From: Bispira polyomma
Taxonomy: Eukaryota
Length of the DNA stretch: 64,000 nucleotides
Reading direction: 5' to 3'
Assembly (NCBI GenBank): GCA_965649765.1
Contig: OZ287750.1
Coordinates: forward strand, 43,896,001 to 43,960,000
The notes below the pieces were generated by a model. The model ran no database searches. It was given only the letters and a program-made list of their open reading frames with translations, and was not told where the DNA came from. Shown here one piece after another: positions 11,809 through 45,520 of the stretch. Within the stretch, counting starts at the first letter, position 1. Each line of letters begins with the position of its first letter. A program made the position numbers and the translations under genes.

Positions 11809-12052
11809 GGGGCCGCGGTGGCCTAGTAGTTAGCAAGCATTGCGCTTCACAATCACTGGTCTCCCACCTCAGGGCGGTGTGAGTTCGAATCCCGTCGATG
11901 CCTATGTGGGAAAGGTGGTAGTTCCTTACTGTGGGCCGCTAGTTTCAGTGCAGAACTTTGATCAACTCTATGCAGTGTTTCCTCCAGCATTTCCAACTAC
12001 CCGTCCTAATATAACCTAAAGAGGTACTAAATATCCAAATTCAAATTCAAAA
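11809..12052 (+). mobile_element. SINE family A, copy 2 (small deletion near the tail)
   Basis: Highly similar to 8711-8973; lies antisense in the probable 3' UTR of the receptor gene. Confidence 0.9.
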
Positions 12053-12514
12053 ACTATATCTGTGGCACACATGTATTTGAATTGAAGCACTAGTTAAAAT
12101 TTAAAACGTTTGATAAACATGGCCCTATATGTGTCTTATTCGTCATTCATATCACCTTTTCTAGTAAAAAGAAGAGACTAGGCTAAAATATGGACAAAAA
12201 GTGGACAAGATATGCCCGATACAACTGCTTGCAAAAATAAATAAGACAAAGAAACAACACAAAAGGAAGCTGACTTCTGACACCCGGACCTGGGGTGAGT
12301 ACAAGTACTTGGTACTTGTACTTAAGTTTAAGTTTTGGAGCACTTCTACTTGAGTATTGGAAATTAAAACTACTAGTACTTTCCAGAAAAAAGTAAGGTA
12401 CTCTCAATTACTTTGCAAGGACACCCAAATACAATAATATCCATGTCTATATGTATTATAATGCCCCAAATGAGTGACTTCAAGTCAGTGACACAATATA
12501 ATGACTATCTAAAA

Positions 12515-13175
12515 CTAAGAAGATTGTTCAGGAGTGTACTGACAAGCAGAACAGCCAGACACCACATCTGGTCGCTGTTCCTCCTTGTCTACTTTGCCAC
12601 CCTGCGTCACACCATCAAATTTAAAGTAGTAGGGTTGTTCAGCTGGTCGCCTGGTAGTGGTAGCCCCACCATTTTTGGTTTTGCCCTTACCAGATCCTTT
12701 CCTGCCATAAGAGATGGAAAAGGCCTTCTTGGGTTCAGATTTTGCCGGATGTTTTCTCAACATGGTGAGTTCGTTGATCTCGTTTTCATTCATGCTCAGG
12801 GAGTCCCACCGATAGTCCATAGTCTTATGTTGTTTATCCGTGCTTCCAGAATCTATGGATCCGGAATAGTGACCCTCTGGAAGTGAAGGTATGGGAGGTG
12901 GTGACATAACGGGAGGATTGGGTAGGGGGGATGTGATAATGACCCCATCCACTACATTGTTCTGGACACGATGCACCCCTCTAAGCTGGAGTGTACTGGC
13001 CTCTACATGAGGACATTCTGCTCCCACTGGGTGACACCTATAGTGGTCTTCTCTGCCCAAAGTTTGGGCTCTCTCCGCCATCAACAGGCCATGATGGTAC
13101 AGACCTTCTTCGTATTTTGACTCTACAGCTTTCAGTGCATACCCTGACCGACTTCGGATCTTTCTCTGCTTCCGC
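12515..13175 (-). CDS. Receptor exon 7: cytoplasmic tail
   Basis: TTTCAG acceptor; basic stop-transfer RRKQRK; Pro-rich PLPNPPVMSPPPIP; QPYYF; ends at TAG. Confidence 0.85.
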
Positions 13176-16100
13176 CTGAAATCAAAAGGTATATATTGTG
13201 TCTTTTTTTTACAATAGCACATTTACAAAATTTAAGTATGCTTGGTCAATGATAAAACAAGAAAGGCAGTTAGTAGACTGAGTACCACCACAAAGGCCCA
13301 TTTCCCCATAAAGTAGACAAAGTTCCTGGATGCAGTTTTCTACCTGGATCCACAGGTAAAAGTTTAATAGATTATTTCTTGACCCATGCTCTATCCATAT
13401 CCTCTATTCCATTTACATCCAGTCCCAAAAATCCTTGAATCCACTTAGATTCAACCTTGATCCACAAACAAACCATTAAAGTGGTTAAAAGCATAACCTC
13501 GTTGGCGGAAGTAATTACAAATTGACACAGCAAACTTTTAAGCAAGTGTAACAGTTTTACAAGGCCCTTATATATAACTATAATCTCTGTAAACTGTCTA
13601 TATATCTTGTTAATGTTACCAAAACAATCATTCATGTATGTGAATTCAAACAGATAATAGTTAGAACAATGCCGAACCAAAACGCCATCTCCATAACGTC
13701 ACCTCCACAACTTTACCTAACTCATCTTTGATTAACCAACAATTACAGTAGAACCTCTCAAATATTCACACATATTTAAAATACATATCACATATTATTG
13801 TAGTATATGAGGTATCTACCTACCTTCTAAGATACGCCAGCACAATGAGCAACATTAAGACTCCTATAGCAACTCCAATAGCTACTCCCAGTGAAATGAC
13901 AACCAGTAAACCTACAAGAGGACATAATGATTGTTTTTTTTATTAGTTTTAATAAAGTGTTCAGTTGAATACAACTTAACTAATATTAGTATATCAATGA
14001 TAAACAATTGAAAAGGTACATTAATTTTTTAACTGAAGCTTTACAAATCATTTTTATGAAATAATACTGATTAACCAATTGCAAAATATGAATAAAAACA
14101 TTGCAGCCTTGCTTATTTAAGGTTATAGCCTTGGATAATAGGTATACCAAATAAAATAGTTAAAAATATTACTCATATATTTATATACCATAGGGAAATG
14201 TAGTCATATTGGAGAGAAAGGTGTTCATACCCCAGTCGTTGACATGAGTGTCATCTGCAAATGAAAAAGAAATAGTGAACAGTAAATACACATTTTGGTT
14301 ATAAGTTGTCACCTTCATGACCTATGCTTTACTATGATAGAAAATGTACTCAGAATTTTTTTTAAATTTAGAGAACCATTGAAAAAAAAAGGCTGACATT
14401 AAATTTAAATAGGGTTAACATAAAACAAGATCACTAAAATACACAGACATATGATATAATTGGTGTTATATTATTAGTGTTCAAATTTTGTTCAACAGCT
14501 GTTAGTCATATACATATTTAGAATTACTTTACATATACAGAAAAAGCTGTAAAACTTTCAGCTGTTCATGATGTCATTATACCTCTGACCACGAACCGGG
14601 TGAAGTAAAGTTACTAAGTATTTGATTCCATACCTCACAATAATGCTAGCCGTAGTATATAAGTATAGTTAACTTTCACCACAATCTGAGTAGGATTATA
14701 GGTACTCAGGCATTTGAGTACCTACTTCCACCACGGTAGTACAGTTACAAAGTAGTTAAATACCTATCTTCCACCACAGTATTATGAGTAGTGCTCCACC
14801 AAGTAATTAAGTATCCCACCTTCCACAACAGTACCAGTGGTAGTACAAATATTAGGTACCGCAGTACGATAAGTAGTAAATCTACTAAGCACTTAAATAA
14901 TTACCTATCACCACAGTACTAGAAGTAGTACAGTATTAGGTACTAAGAGTAATAAGTTACTTAGTACTTGAGAACATATCTACCACCACAGTACTATCAG
15001 TAATACATTTACTGAGTACTTAACTACATAACTTCCACCACAATACCAGCAGTAGCACAGTTATTGAGTACTTAAGTACCTACCTGCCACCCAGTACCAA
15101 AAGTAGCACAGTATTGAGAGTACTGAGAATAGTAAGTTACTTAAGTACATAGCTGCCACCATAGTACCAGAAGTAGTACAGTGTTTGAGTACTTAACTAC
15201 CTACCTTCCACCACAATACCAGCAGTAGCACAGTTATTGAGTACTTAAATGCCTAACTGCCACCCAGTACCAAAAGTAGCACAGTATTGAGAGTACTGAG
15301 AATAGTAAGTTACTTAAATACATAGCTGCCACCACAGTACCAGCAGTACTTAAGTACCTACCTGCCACCATAGTACCAGAAGTAGTACAGTGTTTGAGTA
15401 CTTAACTATCTACCTTCCACCAAAATACCAGCAGTAGCACAGTTATTGAGTATTTAAATGCCTACCTACCACCCAGTACCAAAAGTAGTACAGTATTGAG
15501 AGTACTATGAGTAGTAAGTTACTTAAGTACATAACTGCCACCTTATTACCAGCAGTAGTATAGTTACTTAGTACTTAAGTACCTACCTGCCACCACAGTA
15601 CCAGCAGTACCACAGTTACTTAGTACTTAAGTACCTACCTGCCATCACAGTACCAGCAGTAGTACAGTTACTTAGTACTTAAATCCTTACCTGGCACCAC
15701 AGTACCAGCAGTACCACAGTTACTTAGTACTTAAGTACCTACCTGCCACCACAGTACCAGCAGTAGTTCAGTTATTGAGTACTTAAGTACCTACCTGCCA
15801 TCACAGTACCAGCAGTAGTTCAGTTATTGAGTACTTAAGTACCTACCTGCCACCACAGTACCAGCAGTAGTTCAGTTACTTAGTACTTAAGTACCTACCT
15901 GCCATCACAGTACCAGCAGTAGTACAGTTACTTAGTACTTAAGTACCTACCTGCCACCACATTACCGGCAGTAGTTCAGTTATTGAGTACTTAAGTACCT
16001 ACCTGCCACTACAATTCCAGCAGTAGTACAATTACTGTATGAGCCCACCCACTGGCTTCCACTACAGGTGAGGTGCCAGGAGGCGAGAGTGTTGTTACAT

Positions 16101-19100
16101 TCTACCACGGCGATGTTACCTTTCATCTGTACAACAGCATTGGGAGGGGCTTCAATTGGGGCACAGCCTAGAGCTGTAGGAGTATAACGGGAAGGTTGTT
16201 TAACAGCCAGCTTGTTAAGGTTATATAAAGGAACACAGTAAGATCAAGGCCTAATTGGAATAATTGAAGGGTTAATATAAAATAAACAAGAAGAAAGGTT
16301 ATTTAGCATTTTGTATTGTATTATGTAATTTTAACGCTTTATTGATGCGAAGCATCTTCCAAAGTGCAACAACATGTCAATTAACCAATCTAGAAGTTAA
16401 GTCAATCGAAGAAAACAGTCTTAACAAGCGATGTGGTGATACACAGGCATCTAAAGGGGATAAGCCAGTTTGAAGAGATAGGTTTTAAGCTTTTTCCTAA
16501 ACACAGAAAGTGTTAATGAAATAAAATTACACATCAAGTTCAGCAAATAGATTTTACTGTATTATTTTGGATAAAAATACAGCTTGGAAATTAACCTTGT
16601 ACTTGGTTACATTTACTTTAAATACAGTGCATAATAGCAGAACAAATGCCAGAATTCTCTCACCAGAATACACCACCATAAAGGGAGTGGTACTGTCCAC
16701 AATGGTCACATCGATAATATTGCCCTGGGATAAGAACACGTTGGTCTGCTTCGTTCTCATGTGACCCACCCCACCGCTGCCAGTAGCAGAGGCACCTGCA
16801 CACAAGGAGATGTTACGGCTGGCTGGGGTGCCATTGTTCTCGACGATATAGCCAGCAGCCCCCGCCACACAGGAGGTTTGTAAGGGTCTATAACCCCCTG
16901 GTACAGGGTACCATCCATCATTACTGAGGGCCACTGTGAAATCAATCAGGGTCACATTAATTCTTTGGTAAGGTGGAACCTTGATCCTGATGGGACATCC
17001 GGGACCGCCAACGGAATCCGGAGCCAGAGTGGTGGTGGAAGCAACTACAGCACTAGCCAGTTGTCCAGAGGACTTAGTCACAGTCACATGACCTTCAGGG
17101 GGGCAGGAGGTCTGGGGTGATAGTGAGGCTGGTAAAAAAATTAAAGGAAATAATACAAAACATTTAATGAAATAAAGAAGAGAAAGAATAATGATGAAGA
17201 TAGAGCAATGTTGTAGATAGCTGCTTATGACATTTTGTCTGTGCTTTAGATGATTCTGTATTATAAACCAGGGTAAGTATTCTGAACCTCAAACTTACCT
17301 TAAGTAAAGACCATAATTATAGAGTTCTTGCAGATTTGGAGCAAGTTGTGACATAACCTATTTTAATATGGCTTTTAGGCCTAAATTTAAATATGGAGTC
17401 ACATTTGACATATCTTCCAGAGATACAGAGTTAGGCTGAAGTCTGAGTTTGGTTTTGCACAATATCGCCACAGACGCATGTAGAGTAATTATGCTATGAA
17501 TAATAAAACAGCCTTGTTAATGGAAAATAAATGTGCTTTTAGTACCCCCAAAAAGAATTGTGCTAAAATATAGGCCCTTTTATACTAAAGAGGTTGTTAG
17601 ACTTTATAAAATATAGAATACAACTGTATTGTTCATTATTAAGTTACAATATATCGATGCTGGAATAGTTTTAGAAACATAGCAAAGTAATAAGGAATGA
17701 TGCAGTATGTGACCAAACCCACAAGTGTAGGTAAGCAAGTTTAAAAAGATGAGACAAAACTGTTGTTAAATGAGACACAAATGAGACACATACACACCTT
17801 CTATGCAGCCATAGGTGATCTCTAAATAAAGCCCAAAGTCAGAGTTGCAATGACTCTTCCCGTGCAGTGATATCACAGGCACATGACAACTTCTCCTGCC
17901 TGAGCACTTGGCATCCATAAATGACGTCACGTCCGTTTTGCACCCCACCGCCCCATAATCCTTCTTGATGCACTTGCCGATGTTCATGAGGCCGTAGTTT
18001 GCTTTGTGTATAAGCACCACTTGAGTAGGGCTGCAGCTAGCATTGAAGGCTTCCCAGGCACAACACGTGTCTGTCTTTGTCACATCTATGGAAAAAATAT
18101 ATGATATAACCTTTATAAAATGATGATTTGGTGTCTATACATATTTATTCATTATCAGTGTTTACATATGTGTATACAGAAAAACCCTCTGAAAGTGAAT
18201 GAATCTCAAAAAGAACACAACTTTTATTAATGAATACATTTTCTCCGTCGCATTTTTTGCCACCAGTGAATAATTGTAAAGTGCTTACGAATAGTGAACA
18301 TTTTGACTGGATCCCATGAGTGTTGATTGTAATGAAGTTTTACTGTATTACAGTAAATTATGTAGCGGTTACAGTCCACTTTAGTTTAGAGTCCTTTGGA
18401 AATAGAGTACATTTGCCAAGCTAGCAATGATTTTTTTTAATTTGGATATTTAACGTCCACTCTAGTACCTGTTTAGGTTATATTCAAACGAGTAGTTGGA
18501 AACGCTGGAGGAAACACTGCATACAGTTGATCGAGGTTCTGTACTGAAACAAGCGGCCCACAGTAAGGAACTACCACCTTTCCCACATAGACGTCGACGG
18601 GATTCGAACTCACGTCGCCCAGAGGTGAGAGACCAGTAATTGTAAAGCGCAATGCTTGCTAACCATTAGGCCACCGCGGCCCCCCAAGCTACCAATGAGA
18701 TCGGGCAACTGTGCTCTATTTTCAAAGAGTGAACAATAAGAAGGGACCTAACCTCAATTAAATCATTACAAACCTGTAACAAAAAAAAATGGCTCATAAA
18801 CAGACATACATATATTCATTAACACTTTTCCAGTCATAATCAACAACACAAGATTGTCATGTCAAAATGAGATTTAATACACTTACATTATCATCATAAA
18901 CTTTCACAGTCAGTCATTGTAAGACGAAAATCAACATAGAAGCTTTATCTTGCTTTTTTCTTTATGGTATGTTTTATTTTTTTTCTAGATATTTTTTTTT
19001 ATTACAAGAGACGCCTTGAATATTTAGATATAAAGCACACCAATCCATTAGTTGTAATAAAAATTATATATGAAGTCAATGAGGTTGCTTACTAACTAAC

Positions 19101-34100: not shown

Positions 34101-36947
34101 AAGATCATATTTAGGCCTTTTAAGTTTATGTCGTGCATGACTTACAAATTAAGGCACTTCAACTACAATACAAAACTGCTGTGCTACATTTGGACAACAT
34201 TAGGACTAAGGTACTTTTGGTAATCTATATTGTCAACAATTTGTGTGACCATTACTGTGCCTATGAAAGCTGTCTTAACCAGGACATTGGTAAATACCTT
34301 TTGTTTGCTAATAAGTTGGCAATAATAGCCCTTTTAGGTCTGATAAAAAAATCACTTATTAGAATCGAGGATTTTATAAAAGTCTATCTTACACCAGGTA
34401 TGAAGTTGTATGTCTTAAAAAAGATGTTTACATTAGTTGCCCGAAATTGATAATGTCAATATATAACCATATTTGTTTAGCTTATAAAACAATGGTATAC
34501 CCCATGTAGGAAGTTTGTTGCAAAATAAGGGTAACCTGTTTCAATAAAGTTAATATTTACCAAACGCAAACTAAGCTAAAAAAAAGTCTATTGAACTCTC
34601 CAAATAGATTTCTTTGTTACCCCTATTTGTAACACATGTCTTTTCCCTGTAGTAGTCCTATTTTTTGTCTGTAAATGCCAATATTCTCAGCTGGGTGCAA
34701 TGAAATGACCCCTAACTCTAATCTCGCCGTCAGTATGATTAATGGGGGATTGTAAGAACGATGATCTCCATAAAACACGCCTGTATTAACTGGCAGATGA
34801 TGAGGGAGGGTCTATCTAAGAATGGACACTTCCCTAAACCTAGGAGTTCTGCAATTATTTTTAAAGGAAGCTGGTCTAAACTAGTGAATTACAATATCTA
34901 TTATTACATTGTGTAATAAACACCTCTCTAAATCTAAGAGCTCTGCATTGACTTTTTATTTAAAGGAAGATGATCTAAATTAGTGATGTTACTACATTAC
35001 AATATCTACTATTAGGTACATTGTGTAATAAACAACTGTTTCATTTCTACAATTACTTTAGGGGAAGCTGGTGTTACTAGTAACATTACTGGATTACAGT
35101 ATGTTTTATTAGATACATTGTGTAATAAACACCTGTTTTATTTCTACAATTACTTTTAGGGGAAGCTGGTGTTAACAGTAACGTTCTAGTTTACAGTATG
35201 TTTTATTAGATACATTGTGTAATAAACACCTGTTTTATTTCTACAATTACTTTTAGGGGAAGCTGGTGTTACTAGTAACGTTCTAGTTTACAGTATGTTT
35301 CATTAGATATCTTGTGTAATAAACATCTGTTTTATTTCTACAATTACATTTAGGGCAAGTTGGTGTTACTCGTAACGTTACTAGTTTACAGTATCTTTTA
35401 TCAGATACATTGTGTAATTAACTTCTCTCTAATAGGAGTTCACAATGTTGGTCATAATTTTGGTCATAATGTTGGTCGACACATATTTTAATGTCTAAAA
35501 CGTAATTTCTTAAAAATAAAATATAGTATTCTGTACTTTAATTCATAGACCTAAAGTAGCATGTGCTTTCAATATTTATTTCCGTCTGTAAGTTCGTTAA
35601 AAATGCAATGGACAATATTATGACTCGGCCAACATTGCGACCGCCCATGTAGTAGGGTAAATAGACAGCCCTCTAACCCTGTCAATTATATGTGGGTGCT
35701 GTATTTACTTTTAAGAAATTTAAATCTTAACATATTTGGGCTTTATGTTACATTATGCCTTTATGGTCATGTTGTGATGGTTAGATTTATTGGTGTACAA
35801 ATAACCAGGCAAAGTTTCCCACATGAATGAAATAGGGGGCGGGGGATCCAATTGTCGCCAGAGATGAGAGACTATAGTTATATTAAAGCACATCCTTAAA
35901 ACCACCAAGCCAACACAACCCCTTTACTATTACAAGAGTTTGGTGTTACTAATAATGTTACTACATAAAGTAATGTTAATAAGGATTTCCAACACACCCG
36001 GCAAGTCAATAACAGGCATATTCTAAAGCACAACATCATTGACAGTATGGCAAAAATGGTTCGTACTACAACATAACGTTAATTGTCATGATGTGTTCAC
36101 ATCTTGTCTAAGGGTGCTATCTTCTAGTAGCCATTATGGTATTATTCGGCGTGGAACCGGGGACCTTCTTATCACCAGTCTATCTCCTTAACCACATAAA
36201 CATACAGTATCTATAAAGTATTATGTGATGGATTAAACAAACCTGCACATCAAGTCAAAATTACAACAGCTAAAACAGTTAGATCAGGCAATATGGCAAA
36301 GTGGGAAACAAACTCGCTTTGGAACACAAAAGACCAGGGTTCTGTCCTAGGTAGGGAAGATAGATTATAGCTTGGATGACTACTTTAAGCAGCAGTCCTC
36401 TGTTTTTTGATTCTATCCCCTGAGGCAGACCCAAAGATCACCGGGGACTTTAGCTAGAAGTTATTATATGGGGTGGATACATGTAAACTCTTCACTGGGT
36501 GGAAACTACCACTTGGGATGCTTATAAAAATTGTTAAATCTAAAGTTTCAATGTGACAAAGCCTTATTGAAAATAGCAAAATATTTGACAGTGAGAAACC
36601 AATATCTGATTAGTATTAGTCTCTTTATGAAAGAAAAACTCTTTATCTTGAAAAAGAATGGACATTTTGAAGAAACCGTAATATATTTTGAGCTGTAAAG
36701 TTACATCATCAATAAAATAGTCTTGCTTGTACCTATTAGGCTTGTTTATGGTCTACTATTACATAACACAAAAGTAAGGAGATATTCAGTGTTTATAAAT
36801 TATTAGTGTTAATAGATGCATTCTTGTGTACTCACCCGAGTGTAATGCAGTAGTCCATCCTGAAGCTACCACAGTCAGAAATATTAGACCACAGTACAGC
36901 CAATGCAGGGCAGTGGTATAAAATAAAGCTTCCATTTTCTCTCCCAT
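12515..36947 (-). CDS. Type I membrane protein: signal peptide, SUEL/Gal_lectin, CUB-like, sushi-like, TM, cytoplasmic tail (7 exons, 602 aa)
   Basis: Exons 36947-36836, 18085-17798, 17128-16664, 16173-16003, 14254-14231, 13911-13824, 13175-12515. All introns are GT-AG with compatible phases (1,1,1,1,1,2); total 1809 nt, open frame. Exon 1 linkage across 18.7 kb is the least certain part. Confidence 0.85.
13824..13911 (-). CDS. Receptor exon 6: transmembrane helix
   Basis: GLLVVISLGVAIGVAIGVLMLLIVLAYLR, flanked by TTGTAG and GTAGGT. Confidence 0.88.
14231..14254 (-). CDS. Receptor exon 5: 24-nt micro-exon (DDTHVNDW)
   Basis: Strong acceptor TCTTTTTCATTTGCAG, donor GTATGA, symmetric phase 1-1, open frame. 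Confidence 0.65.
14700..16040. repeat. 52-bp minisatellite derived from the exon 4/intron 4 junction
   Basis: Unit ACTTAAGTACCTACCTGCCACCACAGTACCAGCAGTAGTTCAGTTATTGAGT. Homogeneous over about 15570-16002, higher-order repeats over about 15030-15540, degenerate to about 14700. Confidence 0.95.
16003..16173 (-). CDS. Receptor exon 4: sushi/CCP-like 4-Cys domain
   Basis: ALGCAPIEAPPNAVVQMKGNIAVVECNNTLASWHLTCSGSQWVGSYSNCTTAGIVVA; C..C..C-xxxx-W..C pattern; CCTACAG acceptor and GTAGGT donor. Confidence 0.85.
16664..17128 (-). CDS. Receptor exon 3: CUB-like domain
   Basis: SSGQLAS...CPIRIKVPPYQRINVTLIDF...C...LC...VFLSQGNIIDV...FMVVY follows the CUB strand pattern. Confidence 0.85.
17798..18085 (-). 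CDS. Receptor exon 2: SUEL-type (galactose/rhamnose-binding lectin fold) domain
   Basis: SUEL Cys spacing with ANYG, CSGRRSC and YLEITYGC. Confidence 0.9.
18431..18683 (-). mobile_element. SINE family A, copy 3
   Basis: Reverse complement of family A; 15-bp TSD CCAAGCTA(G/C)CAATGA at 18416-18430 and 18684-18698. Confidence 0.92.
26180..26420 (+). mobile_element. Old tRNA-derived SINE, Deu/Nin-like family
   Basis: B box GGGTTCAATCCC followed by GGATGACTACTTAAAAATGGCGGTCCTCTGTC. Relatives at about 6980-7150 (-), 22570-22810, 36295-36460, 48480-48600 (-) and 50390-50505. Domain name is from recalled resemblance only. Confidence 0.5.
26955..27470. repeat. Fragment of a non-autonomous element with internal CTGGGCATA/GGCATAAAC repeats
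   Basis: Dispersed short direct repeats; a related reverse-strand piece lies at about 6400-6480. Confidence 0.4.
34845..35420. repeat. 97-bp minisatellite, about 4 good plus 1-2 degenerate units
   Basis: GATACATTGTGTAATAAACA-like anchor recurs at 35015, 35112, 35209, 35306 and 35404. Confidence 0.92.
36836..36947 (-). CDS. Receptor exon 1: signal-peptide-like leader
   Basis: MGEKMEALFYTTALHWLYCGLIFLTVVASGWTTALHS; consensus donor G|GTGAGT in phase 1, matching exon 2. Alternative ATG at 36935. Confidence 0.7.
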
Positions 36948-38296: not shown

Positions 38297-40064
38297 GCCG
38301 GTGTAACGCCATAAAATCACCCCCTGCCATATTTTTAATCCCCTCTTTGATCTTTTGAGGGGGTGAGTATTTGGTAAACAAATTTTGCACCCCCCAACAA
38401 TAGGAGGATTAAAGGGGGAAAAATATGGCAGCCAACTTGCCAAATACTGACCCCCCTGACAGAAACTGACCCCCTTGAGTGATTTTTATCAAGATTAATC
38501 CAGTTACACCGATTACCACTGACTTGCTCTTGCATTCAATTACAATCAGGGTGATAATTAATTATGTGCATTTACTGACAGGTTATGTGGGGAGATTGTC
38601 ATTGGTATTTTGGGGATTTATAGGCATTAGAAATAGATAAAAAAAATACTGATTAATTGATGATATGGCATGGGATGACTTGGATAAGGCTGATAACTTA
38701 GGAGGTGTGGCTAGTATAAGAGGCAGCCTTTTTAGAATTATTGCATAAACCACTCAGAAAGTAATACCTAAATTAAAAAAACACTTCATACAACTCTTTC
38801 ATTAACTAACACCACATGAAATATAGTGAACTTAACTTTTAAAGTACCTCTTTAAGTACACTTAAGATTGTCCAGTTTTCAAGAGAAGCCTAATCTTTCT
38901 AATCAAAAGTAAGAAGCTACTATCAAGATCATTTGAAAGGGTATTTCTTGAAGTTACCATAAAACATTGTTTACCACACTATGAGAAATCACATTTAATG
39001 AGGTAATCAACTGTATTATATGAAGCCACTTGCAATCAAGTAATCAAGGTACTGATGACTTTCACTATGAGAAGCCACACTCAGTTAAAGTGATCAAGGT
39101 AGTTTGGTGGTTGTATATACCACAATGAGAAGCCTCATTCAATCATCTAGTAATCCAGTTAAAAACAAACAATCAAGTAATCAAGGTGCTGATGATTTTT
39201 ACTATGAGAAGCCACATCCAATCATCTAGTAATCCAGTTAATCAAACAATCAAGAAATCAGGGTACTGATGACTTTCACTATGACAAGCCACATCCAATC
39301 ATTTAGTAATCCAGTTAATCAAACAATCAAGTAATCATGGTACCAATGAGTTTCAGTATGAGAAGCCACATTCAAGTTTTAAGTGATCAATTCAGCTTTG
39401 TGGTGTATACCACAATGAGAATCCAATTATGTAGTAACCTAGTTAACTTCTAAGATTTACATGTACAGATATACAAAGTTTCACATGTTTTCTTTAATGT
39501 AACACTCAGCCTTAAGACTTATATGTCAGTTCAAATAATTTAAATATTCCAATTCAAAGTGTGCAAAAAATAGGTGTAAAAAATTACTAATTTGCAGAAG
39601 TGGTAAAATTCACAATTTATATCTATATATTTAATTCTTTTAAAATTTGGATTTCCCATGTAAATATATACCGGTTATTGGTAATGTTAATTTAGATTTG
39701 TGTGTACAGAAATGGGAAAGATAAAAATCTTTTTTAAAAAAGTTTTTTATAGTTTGATGAAAGTAGTGCTTTTTATTAATGCTTTAACCAAACTCATTAC
39801 ATTACAATAACTCTCAAACCTGTTAAAAAATTATAATAATAGGGTCACTACCTAGATGAATTTGCCATCATATATAAATGAAAACCCATATACCACAGTG
39901 TTACCTGCTATTGATCTTAAATAGCTACATATATAATGTCCATATAGCCATTATGATTTGGGGAGTAAAAATTTGGCAAGGGGGGTGAAAATATGGCACC
40001 CCCCTTGCCAAATCCACACCCCCCAAGAAAAAAAAGGGGAGTAAAAATCTGGTGCTACACCGGC
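38297..40064. mobile_element. Putative non-autonomous DNA transposon (about 1.77 kb)
   Basis: TIR GCCGGTGTAACGCCA versus TGGTGCTACACCGGC (13/15), with subterminal CCAnATTTTTAnTCCCC-type repeats at both ends. Confidence 0.6.
38975..39450. repeat. Degenerate 77-79-bp tandem repeat
   Basis: GAGAAGCC-like anchor at 39127, 39206, 39283 and 39360, with shared AATCATCTAGTAATCCAGTTAA. Confidence 0.85.
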
Positions 40065-43000: not shown

Positions 43001-45263
43001 CAAAGACCTCTAATGTGAACGTTAGCTGGGGGCCGCCATGTTGCATGACAGATCTTCACAATATTCATGAAAACATATATTTGTTCTATTGTGAATAATG
43101 TTATATTTGTCTCATATTTATGGTTAATATATTTCTCTTATATAGGTGGGCTGATAAGAAGTTTATTTTATAAGAAAAATGAAAGAATTTATTGATGTAG
43201 AAATATAATGTTGACAGTTAATGTTTTTGTTTTTTTTTTACTTCTGGGATTTTCCGGTCTGGTAATGCGTCATAGCTGACATAATTAGAAAGTAGGTCAA
43301 ACCGCTATGCAAAACGGTTACTACTAAAGCCTGAAATGTCACTCGGAACCGGAATAGACCTGCGAAAGTGTTGGTGTATGCTAGACTTACATAAAGCAGT
43401 CTTCACCTCCCTTCGACCTGCTCTTTAAAAAGGCTATTCTTGTGACGCTTTGTAAGGCTTATGTTATAGTGTTGATATAACCAAACAGATACATTCACGG
43501 AATTTACAAAAGTTTACCAACTTAACCTTGGTTTATGTTATGTCTTATACCAGGTAAAATATGATACCATACGAGATCTAAATATATATGTACTGTCTTT
43601 TCTTAATGTAACTTTCCATTTTATTTGGCAACAAATAGTTTAAAGTCACCACTAATTCTGTGGGTACGTGATACTTAGCAAACCATATACCATATGCTTC
43701 AGTTACATTAAGATCAGTATCCACTGTAACATTTAAAATCTGATGTAATCTAAGCTTTTTAACTGCTAAATCTTCCCATATAAAATAACCCTATATGCTA
43801 TAGCATCTTCTAAAATGGCCGTGTCATTTCAAAAGTTTGATATATATTTTTTTTAATTGGTTACTTGCCTTTGATCGACTTCACAAACAGTGCTTAAAGG
43901 TGTAATGCACATGCTTTAACATCATCTCCAGTTAAAACATTCCCAGATAATCATCGATCCCTGGTTCCTTGTTCTCCAAATGAAACGCAAGTTAGCACTC
44001 AAACTTACCTCAAGTGATGGCTATATAGAAGTAATTCTATATGATATAGAATTAACCCATACTTGTAACCATTCATTTTAATAGAGCTTTCAACTCTGAA
44101 TTCAAATATGTGATTATATTTTACTAAGGACTAGTCTAGTCAGAGATGTGGAGACATTAGTTTTTGAGCTTGAGACTGTTTGAGAGGACGGAAGCCCCTG
44201 GATTGAACACCTCACCCCTATTCCTATCTCCCTCCCCTCCACACACTACAGAGGGCATCTAGCTTGTAAAATGAGGGATTGGTAACAGCATAAACTCCCC
44301 AAAAACACTTACCCTTCTAAATACACACACACAGAAGGCAGCTCGTCCCAAGACCCAAATTGAATTTTTATCCATAGAGTGATTCTTTATGTTCTTATGT
44401 AAAGGACTGTGTGATTGCTAATAAAGCTGCTTTCGTGTAATTGTGTGTCAAAGACTTGGAAGAGCCTCTTGTGTTGTGCTTGTTATTTTCTTTTATGAAT
44501 TTCAGGCTTTGATAAAACAAACATGACATGAGTTTTTTTTTATAAAGTTTCTTTCTCTGCATTTTTATTGGTATTACAAAGACTAATCGTTTTGCATTAC
44601 TAATATGAGTATGAATAAAAGAATAAGGCATAATGATAACCAGTGAATTCAAGCTTTTCTGCCTTAAAAACAATTCTGAATTAATTAAGATTTGAATTAA
44701 AACATATCTACAGCTTACGAGAGTAAACTATTGAAGTAATATTTTTTACAAATATTTTTTTTCTGTATTATTTTTGTATAATTATATTTCATAATTATTG
44801 GTGTGTACTTGTTATTTGTTCTAATATGGTCTATTATATATATTTATCTTAGCATTTGTAAATATACAAATTGTGTTGATATTATGTCTGAAATAAAGTT
44901 GTTGTTCTTATTTCAGGTGAATCTTTATTACATGGGATAATAATAATAATAAGGTGTTTAATAGAGGGCTGTGGAGTGGACTTATTCTGAAAAATTTTAG
45001 CATGCATTGAGAAATACATCCATTCAACGGTGTGCAGATATATATATAAGAATAGGGAAAACCATAATCTTAATTAAAATCTAGTCTCTTTTCAGAGAAG
45101 ATCACTACATTAAATGGAACAGTTTAAGTATTAAGGGTCTTGCTAACCGGCTCCAGTGTAGTATGATTCGAACATGTACGATCCGATAAAAATTCAAGAA
45201 ACAATAAAAAATATATTTTCCATATATACTTCATCATATCCGTTCCGATCTGTGGCAATCAAA

Positions 45264-45520
45264 GGGGGCCACGGTGGCCTAGTGGTTGGAAAGCATTGCG
45301 CTTCACAATCACTGGCCTCTCACCTCTAAGCGGCGTGAGTTTAAATCCCATCGATGCCTATGTGGGAAAGGTGGTAGTTCCTTACTGTGGGCCACTGGTT
45401 TCAGTGCAGAACCTTGATCATCTGTATGCAGTGTTTCCTTCAGCATTTCCAACTACTCGTCCCAATATAACCTAAATTGGTACTAGAGTGGACGGTAAAT
45501 ATCCCAATTCAAATTCAAAA
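45264..45520 (+). mobile_element. SINE family A, copy 4
   Basis: 14-bp TSD CTGTGGCA(A/T)TCAAA at 45250-45263 and 45521-45534; (AAATTC)n tail. Confidence 0.92.

Follow-up and report, generated by a model that had tools for sequence, protein, structure and literature searches.

A donor-spanning minisatellite, probably removed whole by splicing, in a predicted receptor gene of Bispira polyomma, and duplicated exon boundaries elsewhere in its genome

Across the boundary of exon 4 and intron 4 of a predicted receptor gene runs an array of 52-bp repeats, many of which carry a copy of the splice donor, and this locus raises the question of whether the array contributes to the protein or leaves with the intron. 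The window, the whole stretch of 64,000 nucleotides that was analysed, belongs to contig C3, the animal genome as a whole measuring 1.035 Gb. Its minus strand offers seven exons whose junctions agree in phase and which join into an open frame of 616 residues, a gene structure predicted from the genomic DNA. Candidate exon 1 (36836..36947) would supply an ATG, a signal-peptide-like start and a phase-1 donor at the 73rd percentile of our site matrix, and the frame stays open through exons 2–7. Exon 2 (17798..18085) encodes a SUEL lectin domain (Pfam PF02140, E = 3.7e-9) and the predicted exon 3 (16664..17128) an extracellular domain of 154 amino acids, which we take, by eye, to be “CUB-like” and for which a Pfam search gave no significant match. 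Exon 4 (16003..16173) encodes a four-Cys module, labelled “sushi-like” by eye and without a match in the Pfam search; its predicted true donor, GCAG|GTAGGT, lies at 16003/16002. There follow a predicted stalk (exon 5, 14189..14254) with a strong acceptor (96th percentile), a predicted transmembrane helix (exon 6, 13824..13911; Kyte-Doolittle 19-residue mean 2.92) and a predicted cytoplasmic tail (coding part of exon 7, 12514..13175). The SUEL and the sushi-like module both belong to families of more than 100 members, the four-Cys exon having 101 matches in the genome and the SUEL exon 121; SUEL and sushi-like exons alternate in dense clusters on contig C4 (~13.9–14.0, 26.96–26.99, 36.86–36.95, 88.21–88.33, and 99.26–99.43 Mb).

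Tandem Repeats Finder reports a repeat of period 52 at 15520-16036 (9.9 copies, 90% matches). Alignment of the exon end with 19 further units bears out the earlier note, which had taken the 52-bp unit to be the last ~34 nt of exon 4, here the first unit, plus the start of intron 4. The extent given there, 15570-16040, covers a genuine repeat but about half of the array, which comprises ~20 copies between 16036 and ~14940; those near the exon are uniform, and decay increases farther away. Its homogeneous part (15520..16036, minus strand), in which the ten exon-adjoining copies are ~90% alike, holds eight intact extra donors (15951, 15899, 15847, 15795, 15743, 15691, 15639, and 15587). The degenerate distal part (14940..15520, minus strand) contains a 173-bp higher-order repeat and has lost the donor +1 G in 5 of 10 units (6 of 11 including the one at 15535), so that GT is kept in 13 of the 19 copies and all six losses lie from 15535 outwards. 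This +1 G is the sole column of 33 with three different substitutions, all in older units, a weak hint that selection sees the copies; on these numbers the pattern is not significant. The true exon end differs from the unit consensus at five positions over the 34 exon nucleotides. Nine extra GCAG|GTAGGT donors and one CCAG|GTAAGG had been claimed for 15570-16040; the latter is present, and seven of the former lie inside this interval, nine being reached only by adding those at 15362 and 15084 outside it. A perfect palindrome of 12 bp, GTACTTAAGTAC, is also present in most units of 15520-16036, and in several there is a four-GG tract, GGTGGCAGGTAGG; the tract resembles the G-rich core of human minisatellites, and both are possible drivers of array instability.

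By its structure, the array classes as a donor-spanning minisatellite (F7 type, or mirage), a kind that is already known. It is a tandem array with a unit in the range of 10–160 bp (52 bp, ~20 copies), its first unit spans and derives from an exon-intron boundary predicted from paralogues, and the splice site is reiterated as pseudo-sites. The array is also specific to its locus: a 22-nt motif of the unit has 10 matches in the 1.04-Gb genome, all 10 of them here, and the reversed control has none (one exact pattern was searched). Descent of the unit from a dispersed element was rejected on this count. Among the human precedents, according to the passages of Borensztajn et al. (PMC1557585) cited here, F7 IVS7 carries a donor-spanning repeat of 37 bp in 5–9 copies and uses the most upstream donor; LMNB2 (100 bp, 10–15 copies) and PDGF intron 4 (81 bp, 16–18 copies) use the authentic site only, and the interferon-inducible gene 6-16 and CBS IVS13, two of the five, use the next two pseudo-sites as well. 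The present array resembles those described there (PMC1557585) in that its first unit lies over the boundary and identical pseudo-sites recur at regular intervals beyond its authentic donor, and also in unit size and copy number. Unlike F7, where these passages give four copied exon bases, it copies 34, and unlike the human minisatellites as portrayed there it has an age gradient and a higher-order repeat and is known from DNA alone. Boundary duplications termed “mirages” have been described in amphioxus for Adh3, troponin C, the globins BflGb6 and BflGb9, and PGBD5; in the passages cited (PMC3087553, PMC3902484) they occur at both exon ends, are reportedly harmless to splicing and are suggested as raw material for new exons or introns. 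They share with our array the tandem duplication of a boundary, units of tens to ~150 bp and many intact AG or GT sites, whereas animal and gene are different, and those passages contain neither a frequency estimate, such as the 7–9% obtained below, nor a bias of exon families to one side (PMC3087553, PMC3902484).

The direction of copying can be read from the paralogous exons, which finish on the same G-x-C-T-type motif and have their phase-1 donor within a few codons of it; the unit holds the conserved N-C end of this module family. Because the phase-1 intron position is common to the paralogues, it is old, and the unit is derived from the exon, with the boundary as predicted from these relatives, and not the reverse. 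The array probably started as a small tandem duplication across the junction, which would leave one complete exon and every extra copy intronic, an arrangement that selection would have tolerated for this very reason. Unequal exchange or slippage would then have amplified the unit.

Duplicated boundaries are not peculiar to this gene. In a census of the genome we took a 24-nt probe at each exon boundary and searched up to 300 nt into the intron, but not into the exon, for a copy with at most five mismatches; it covered 90 of the 101 sushi-like matches, 70 LDLa loci for 150 listed, 30 of 150 EGF loci and 50 of 121 SUEL loci, and the kinase loci, mostly long single-exon matches, were left out. 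With sushi-like, SUEL, LDLa, and EGF exons taken together, duplication of the exon's own boundary was seen at 16 of 224 donors and at 21 of 236 acceptors. The p-values that follow are optimistic, since the exons are concentrated in a limited set of genes. Sushi-like exons show the duplication at 9 of 90 donors (this locus included) and 1 of 90 acceptors (p = 0.03), with 50/1980 and 49/1980 at control anchors in their introns; the donor excess persists if this locus is omitted (8/89 versus 50/1980, p = 0.002). Each of these duplications matches its own exon, and seven of the nine donor cases belong to contigs other than C4, which together contribute 29 exons. LDLa exons (L162–L231) lean the opposite way, with 14 of 68 acceptors, about one in five, against 1 of 56 donors (p = 0.0015); the acceptor count was 15/66 under a slightly different anchor rule and 8/42 in loci added later, the matches were inspected, and the controls gave 40/634, raised by the arrays themselves, and 13/491. 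EGF exons (L252–L281) have duplications on both sides (donors 3/28, acceptors 5/30; controls 8/236 and 14/292), taken alone a modest excess, and SUEL exons (acceptors 3/50, donors 1/48) are near background. A genome-wide donor bias was accordingly rejected, given the LDLa lean to acceptors and the EGF counts. On the donor side the nearest copy has an intact GT in 11 of 14 cases, and on the acceptor side an intact AG in 19 of 20, a count in which detection favours intact copies; since nearest copies mostly keep these dinucleotides, intact look-alike sites are widely tolerated in this genome, and a purging of copied sites is no general pattern.

Among the sushi-like exons (L011–L100), the motif GGGTGGG, which encodes Trp-Val-Gly codons near the donor, occurs in six of the nine mirage cases and 8 of the 81 others (p = 0.0003, post hoc). 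Seeding by G-runs was rejected as a cause, because the mirror prediction, set beforehand, failed in held-out LDLa exons (8 versus 34 exons; p = 0.16 for the C count and 0.13 for C runs). The repeats of these paralogous exons are independent of one another and range from arrays of about 56 bp in more than 25 copies, 74 bp, and 56 bp in nine copies to duplications with two or three copies, and they are also found at L019, L053, L063, L064, and L100. At L063 the end of the exon and the start of the intron are repeated without a mismatch over 239 bp, the copy lying 239 nt beyond the donor; this duplication is either very recent or one made in assembly. Long donor-spanning arrays of unrelated sequence lie just past the matched sushi-like exon at L013, L025, and L030. 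The kinase matches include many dispersed intronless ORFs of a kinase domain, of 411–419 residues with similar scores on at least 10 contigs (e.g., L137–L153), possibly carried by a mobile element.

In the open literature searched, we found neither a published frequency of boundary duplication nor a family-specific side bias. With about one in twelve sampled splice sites duplicated, the genome offers a large natural test set on which to ask whether first-donor choice (oriented scanning) and choice of the last acceptor also hold in non-mammals, whether mirages lead to new exons or introns as proposed, and where gene annotation goes wrong. The single locus would be one more example of a described oddity, likely with no change in the protein.

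By analogy with the known arrays, we consider it probable (about 0.75) that this array is removed whole, from the first donor to exon 5, that the receptor is unchanged and that the array is neutral. The spliceosome would take the most upstream of the identical donors, as in human F7. The acceptors within the repeat are weaker than all predicted real ones and that of exon 5 is strong, which favours whole-array removal. Against exclusive use of the first donor stand the eight proximal copies, which are as strong as the true one (10.8–11.6 versus 10.8). That the first is used is likely by analogy with the mammalian and amphioxus cases. To a small extent, splicing might leak to donors further along, the second or third, which is what human 6-16 and CBS show. 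Reading past the true donor meets a TAA after seven codons (15980..15982, minus strand), so that use of a distal donor would end the frame before the transmembrane exon, as the earlier note had rightly stated, and the transcript would be a likely substrate for decay.

Whether such a leak could have a function is the most serious alternative, although we think it improbable. Splicing from the second or third donor would then produce a secreted SUEL/CUB-like/sushi-like ectodomain, or lower the amount of receptor through decay, and copy number would modulate the outcome. The identical strong donors every 52 nt, the stop ahead of the transmembrane exon and the use of the two nearest pseudo-sites in 6-16 and CBS are all compatible with this. 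However, boundary duplications affect 7–9% of the sampled boundaries in several unrelated exon families, and being so common they need no gene-specific purpose. Moreover, all distal donors lead to one and the same truncated product, so that copy number could alter the leak rate only, and the stop lies upstream of three junctions. A search for homologues of exons 3 and 7 among longer proteins found none, which is weak evidence, and hence support from conservation was not found.

A less likely alternative to removal of the whole array is that its old part is giving rise to a new exon. Outside the interval of the earlier note, a 17-nt insertion in three units of the higher-order repeat has produced an acceptor and in each delimits a 39-nt pseudo-exon on the minus strand. 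The one at 15084..15122 is in frame, stop-free and reads LSILCYFWYWVA, its acceptor and donor scoring at the 55th and 93rd percentile; its sister at 15466..15504 has weaker sites (18th and 33rd percentile) and the third copy, 15295-15257, a dead donor. If 15122-15084 were included in some transcripts, its 13 hydrophobic residues together with the end of exon 4 could form a second membrane-spanning segment, as the 19-residue hydropathy behind exon 4 would rise from 0.65 to 2.03. Neither the 18.75 kb of intron 1 nor the 26.9 kb upstream contain a pseudo-exon equal to it in both sites, and inclusion would fit the model proposed in Fig. 7 of PMC3087553. Pseudo-exons with an acceptor this strong and a median donor, on the other hand, occur twice in intron 1 and four times upstream, the donor's strength is built in, an exon of 39 nt would be short, and one of the three sister copies has lost its donor. 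A fitting reading frame arises by chance one time in three, and T-rich codons read hydrophobic by default. On its splice sites, 15122-15084 is the best candidate for real inclusion, still with long odds against it. Were it true, we would be looking at a mirage caught exonising, which completes a second membrane helix behind the sushi-like module and switches receptor topology, and, with 7–9% of exon boundaries duplicated on a side set by exon family, mirages would account for much of the supply of new exons in this lineage; we rate this equally low.

The least credible of the proposals with an effect on the protein is the one from which the analysis departed, namely, that proximal 39-nt units are included via TTAAG acceptors and add Cys-bearing stalk segments or stop cassettes. 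Some of its elements are sound. Each proximal unit parses as 39 nt plus GTAGGTACTTAAG as described, and the units 15937-15899, 15729-15691, 15677-15639, and 15625-15587 are open, with the right frame and donor, while four others carry a TGA; one more unit, 15573-15535, is also open, though its donor is dead. A unit start in frame is a one-in-three chance, and the phase of the unit end follows from its being the exon end. The acceptors speak against the proposal. The sites were scored on a matrix of 200 acceptors predicted in this genome, whose own leave-one-out scores have a minimum of 0.0 and a median of 7.3; being predicted and partly picked by a pyrimidine heuristic, these reference sites make the “real” set look somewhat better than it is. 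The gene's own six predicted acceptors score 6.8–11.5 and the six proposed AAG sites −1.5 to −2.7, under all 200. AAG acceptors do occur in this genome (6 of 76), yet with a smaller 76-site matrix all 35 AGs at 16002-15534 fall below every one of the 76; neither matrix reveals the usable acceptor per unit expected of a tandem cassette-exon array. The TACTAAG motifs, cited as potential branch points, are indeed the first seven bases of six units, but they stand after the proposed AG of their own unit; they are suitably placed for the CAG that closes the unit 33 nt farther along, which scores at the 2nd percentile, and splicing to it would presumably find another GT next and restore the junction as it was. 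Coding constraint, likewise expected of such an array, is not apparent either: among the nine variant codons of the nine proximal units one is synonymous, seven are missense and one is a stop (27% synonymous expected for random changes), and the Cys codon has become TGA in four of the nine units. Between exon and unit consensus, three of the five differing codons are synonymous, a bias that selection on the exon alone explains equally well. Regulation by cassettes or copy number is unlikely, and nothing in the DNA shows it.

That the array is a product of misassembly can be practically dismissed: tandem arrays can be mis-sized, but the unit differences are structured and graded, and in three DNA-like runs (short-word contigs from one study, possibly of the source sample) a contig covers 15980-16371 with 0 differences, unit-like short contigs with 2–4 differences are found and the summed depth over the first unit is ~8 times that of the flank, which is not a copy number. 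Over 15952-18100 these runs behave as DNA, with flat depth over introns and no exon-exon joints among the contigs shown.

A fragment of a high-copy dispersed repeat lies at 16312-16527, where contig depth is very high. A short recurring element, tRNA-like by eye, is found at 18530-18680, 11810-11980, and 45167-45475 and likewise represents high-copy dispersed repeat fragments. The window contains two other minisatellites, at 34981-35422 in intron 1 (97 bp, 4.5 copies) and at 39121-39375 upstream of exon 1 (77 bp, 3.3 copies), both away from predicted exon boundaries.
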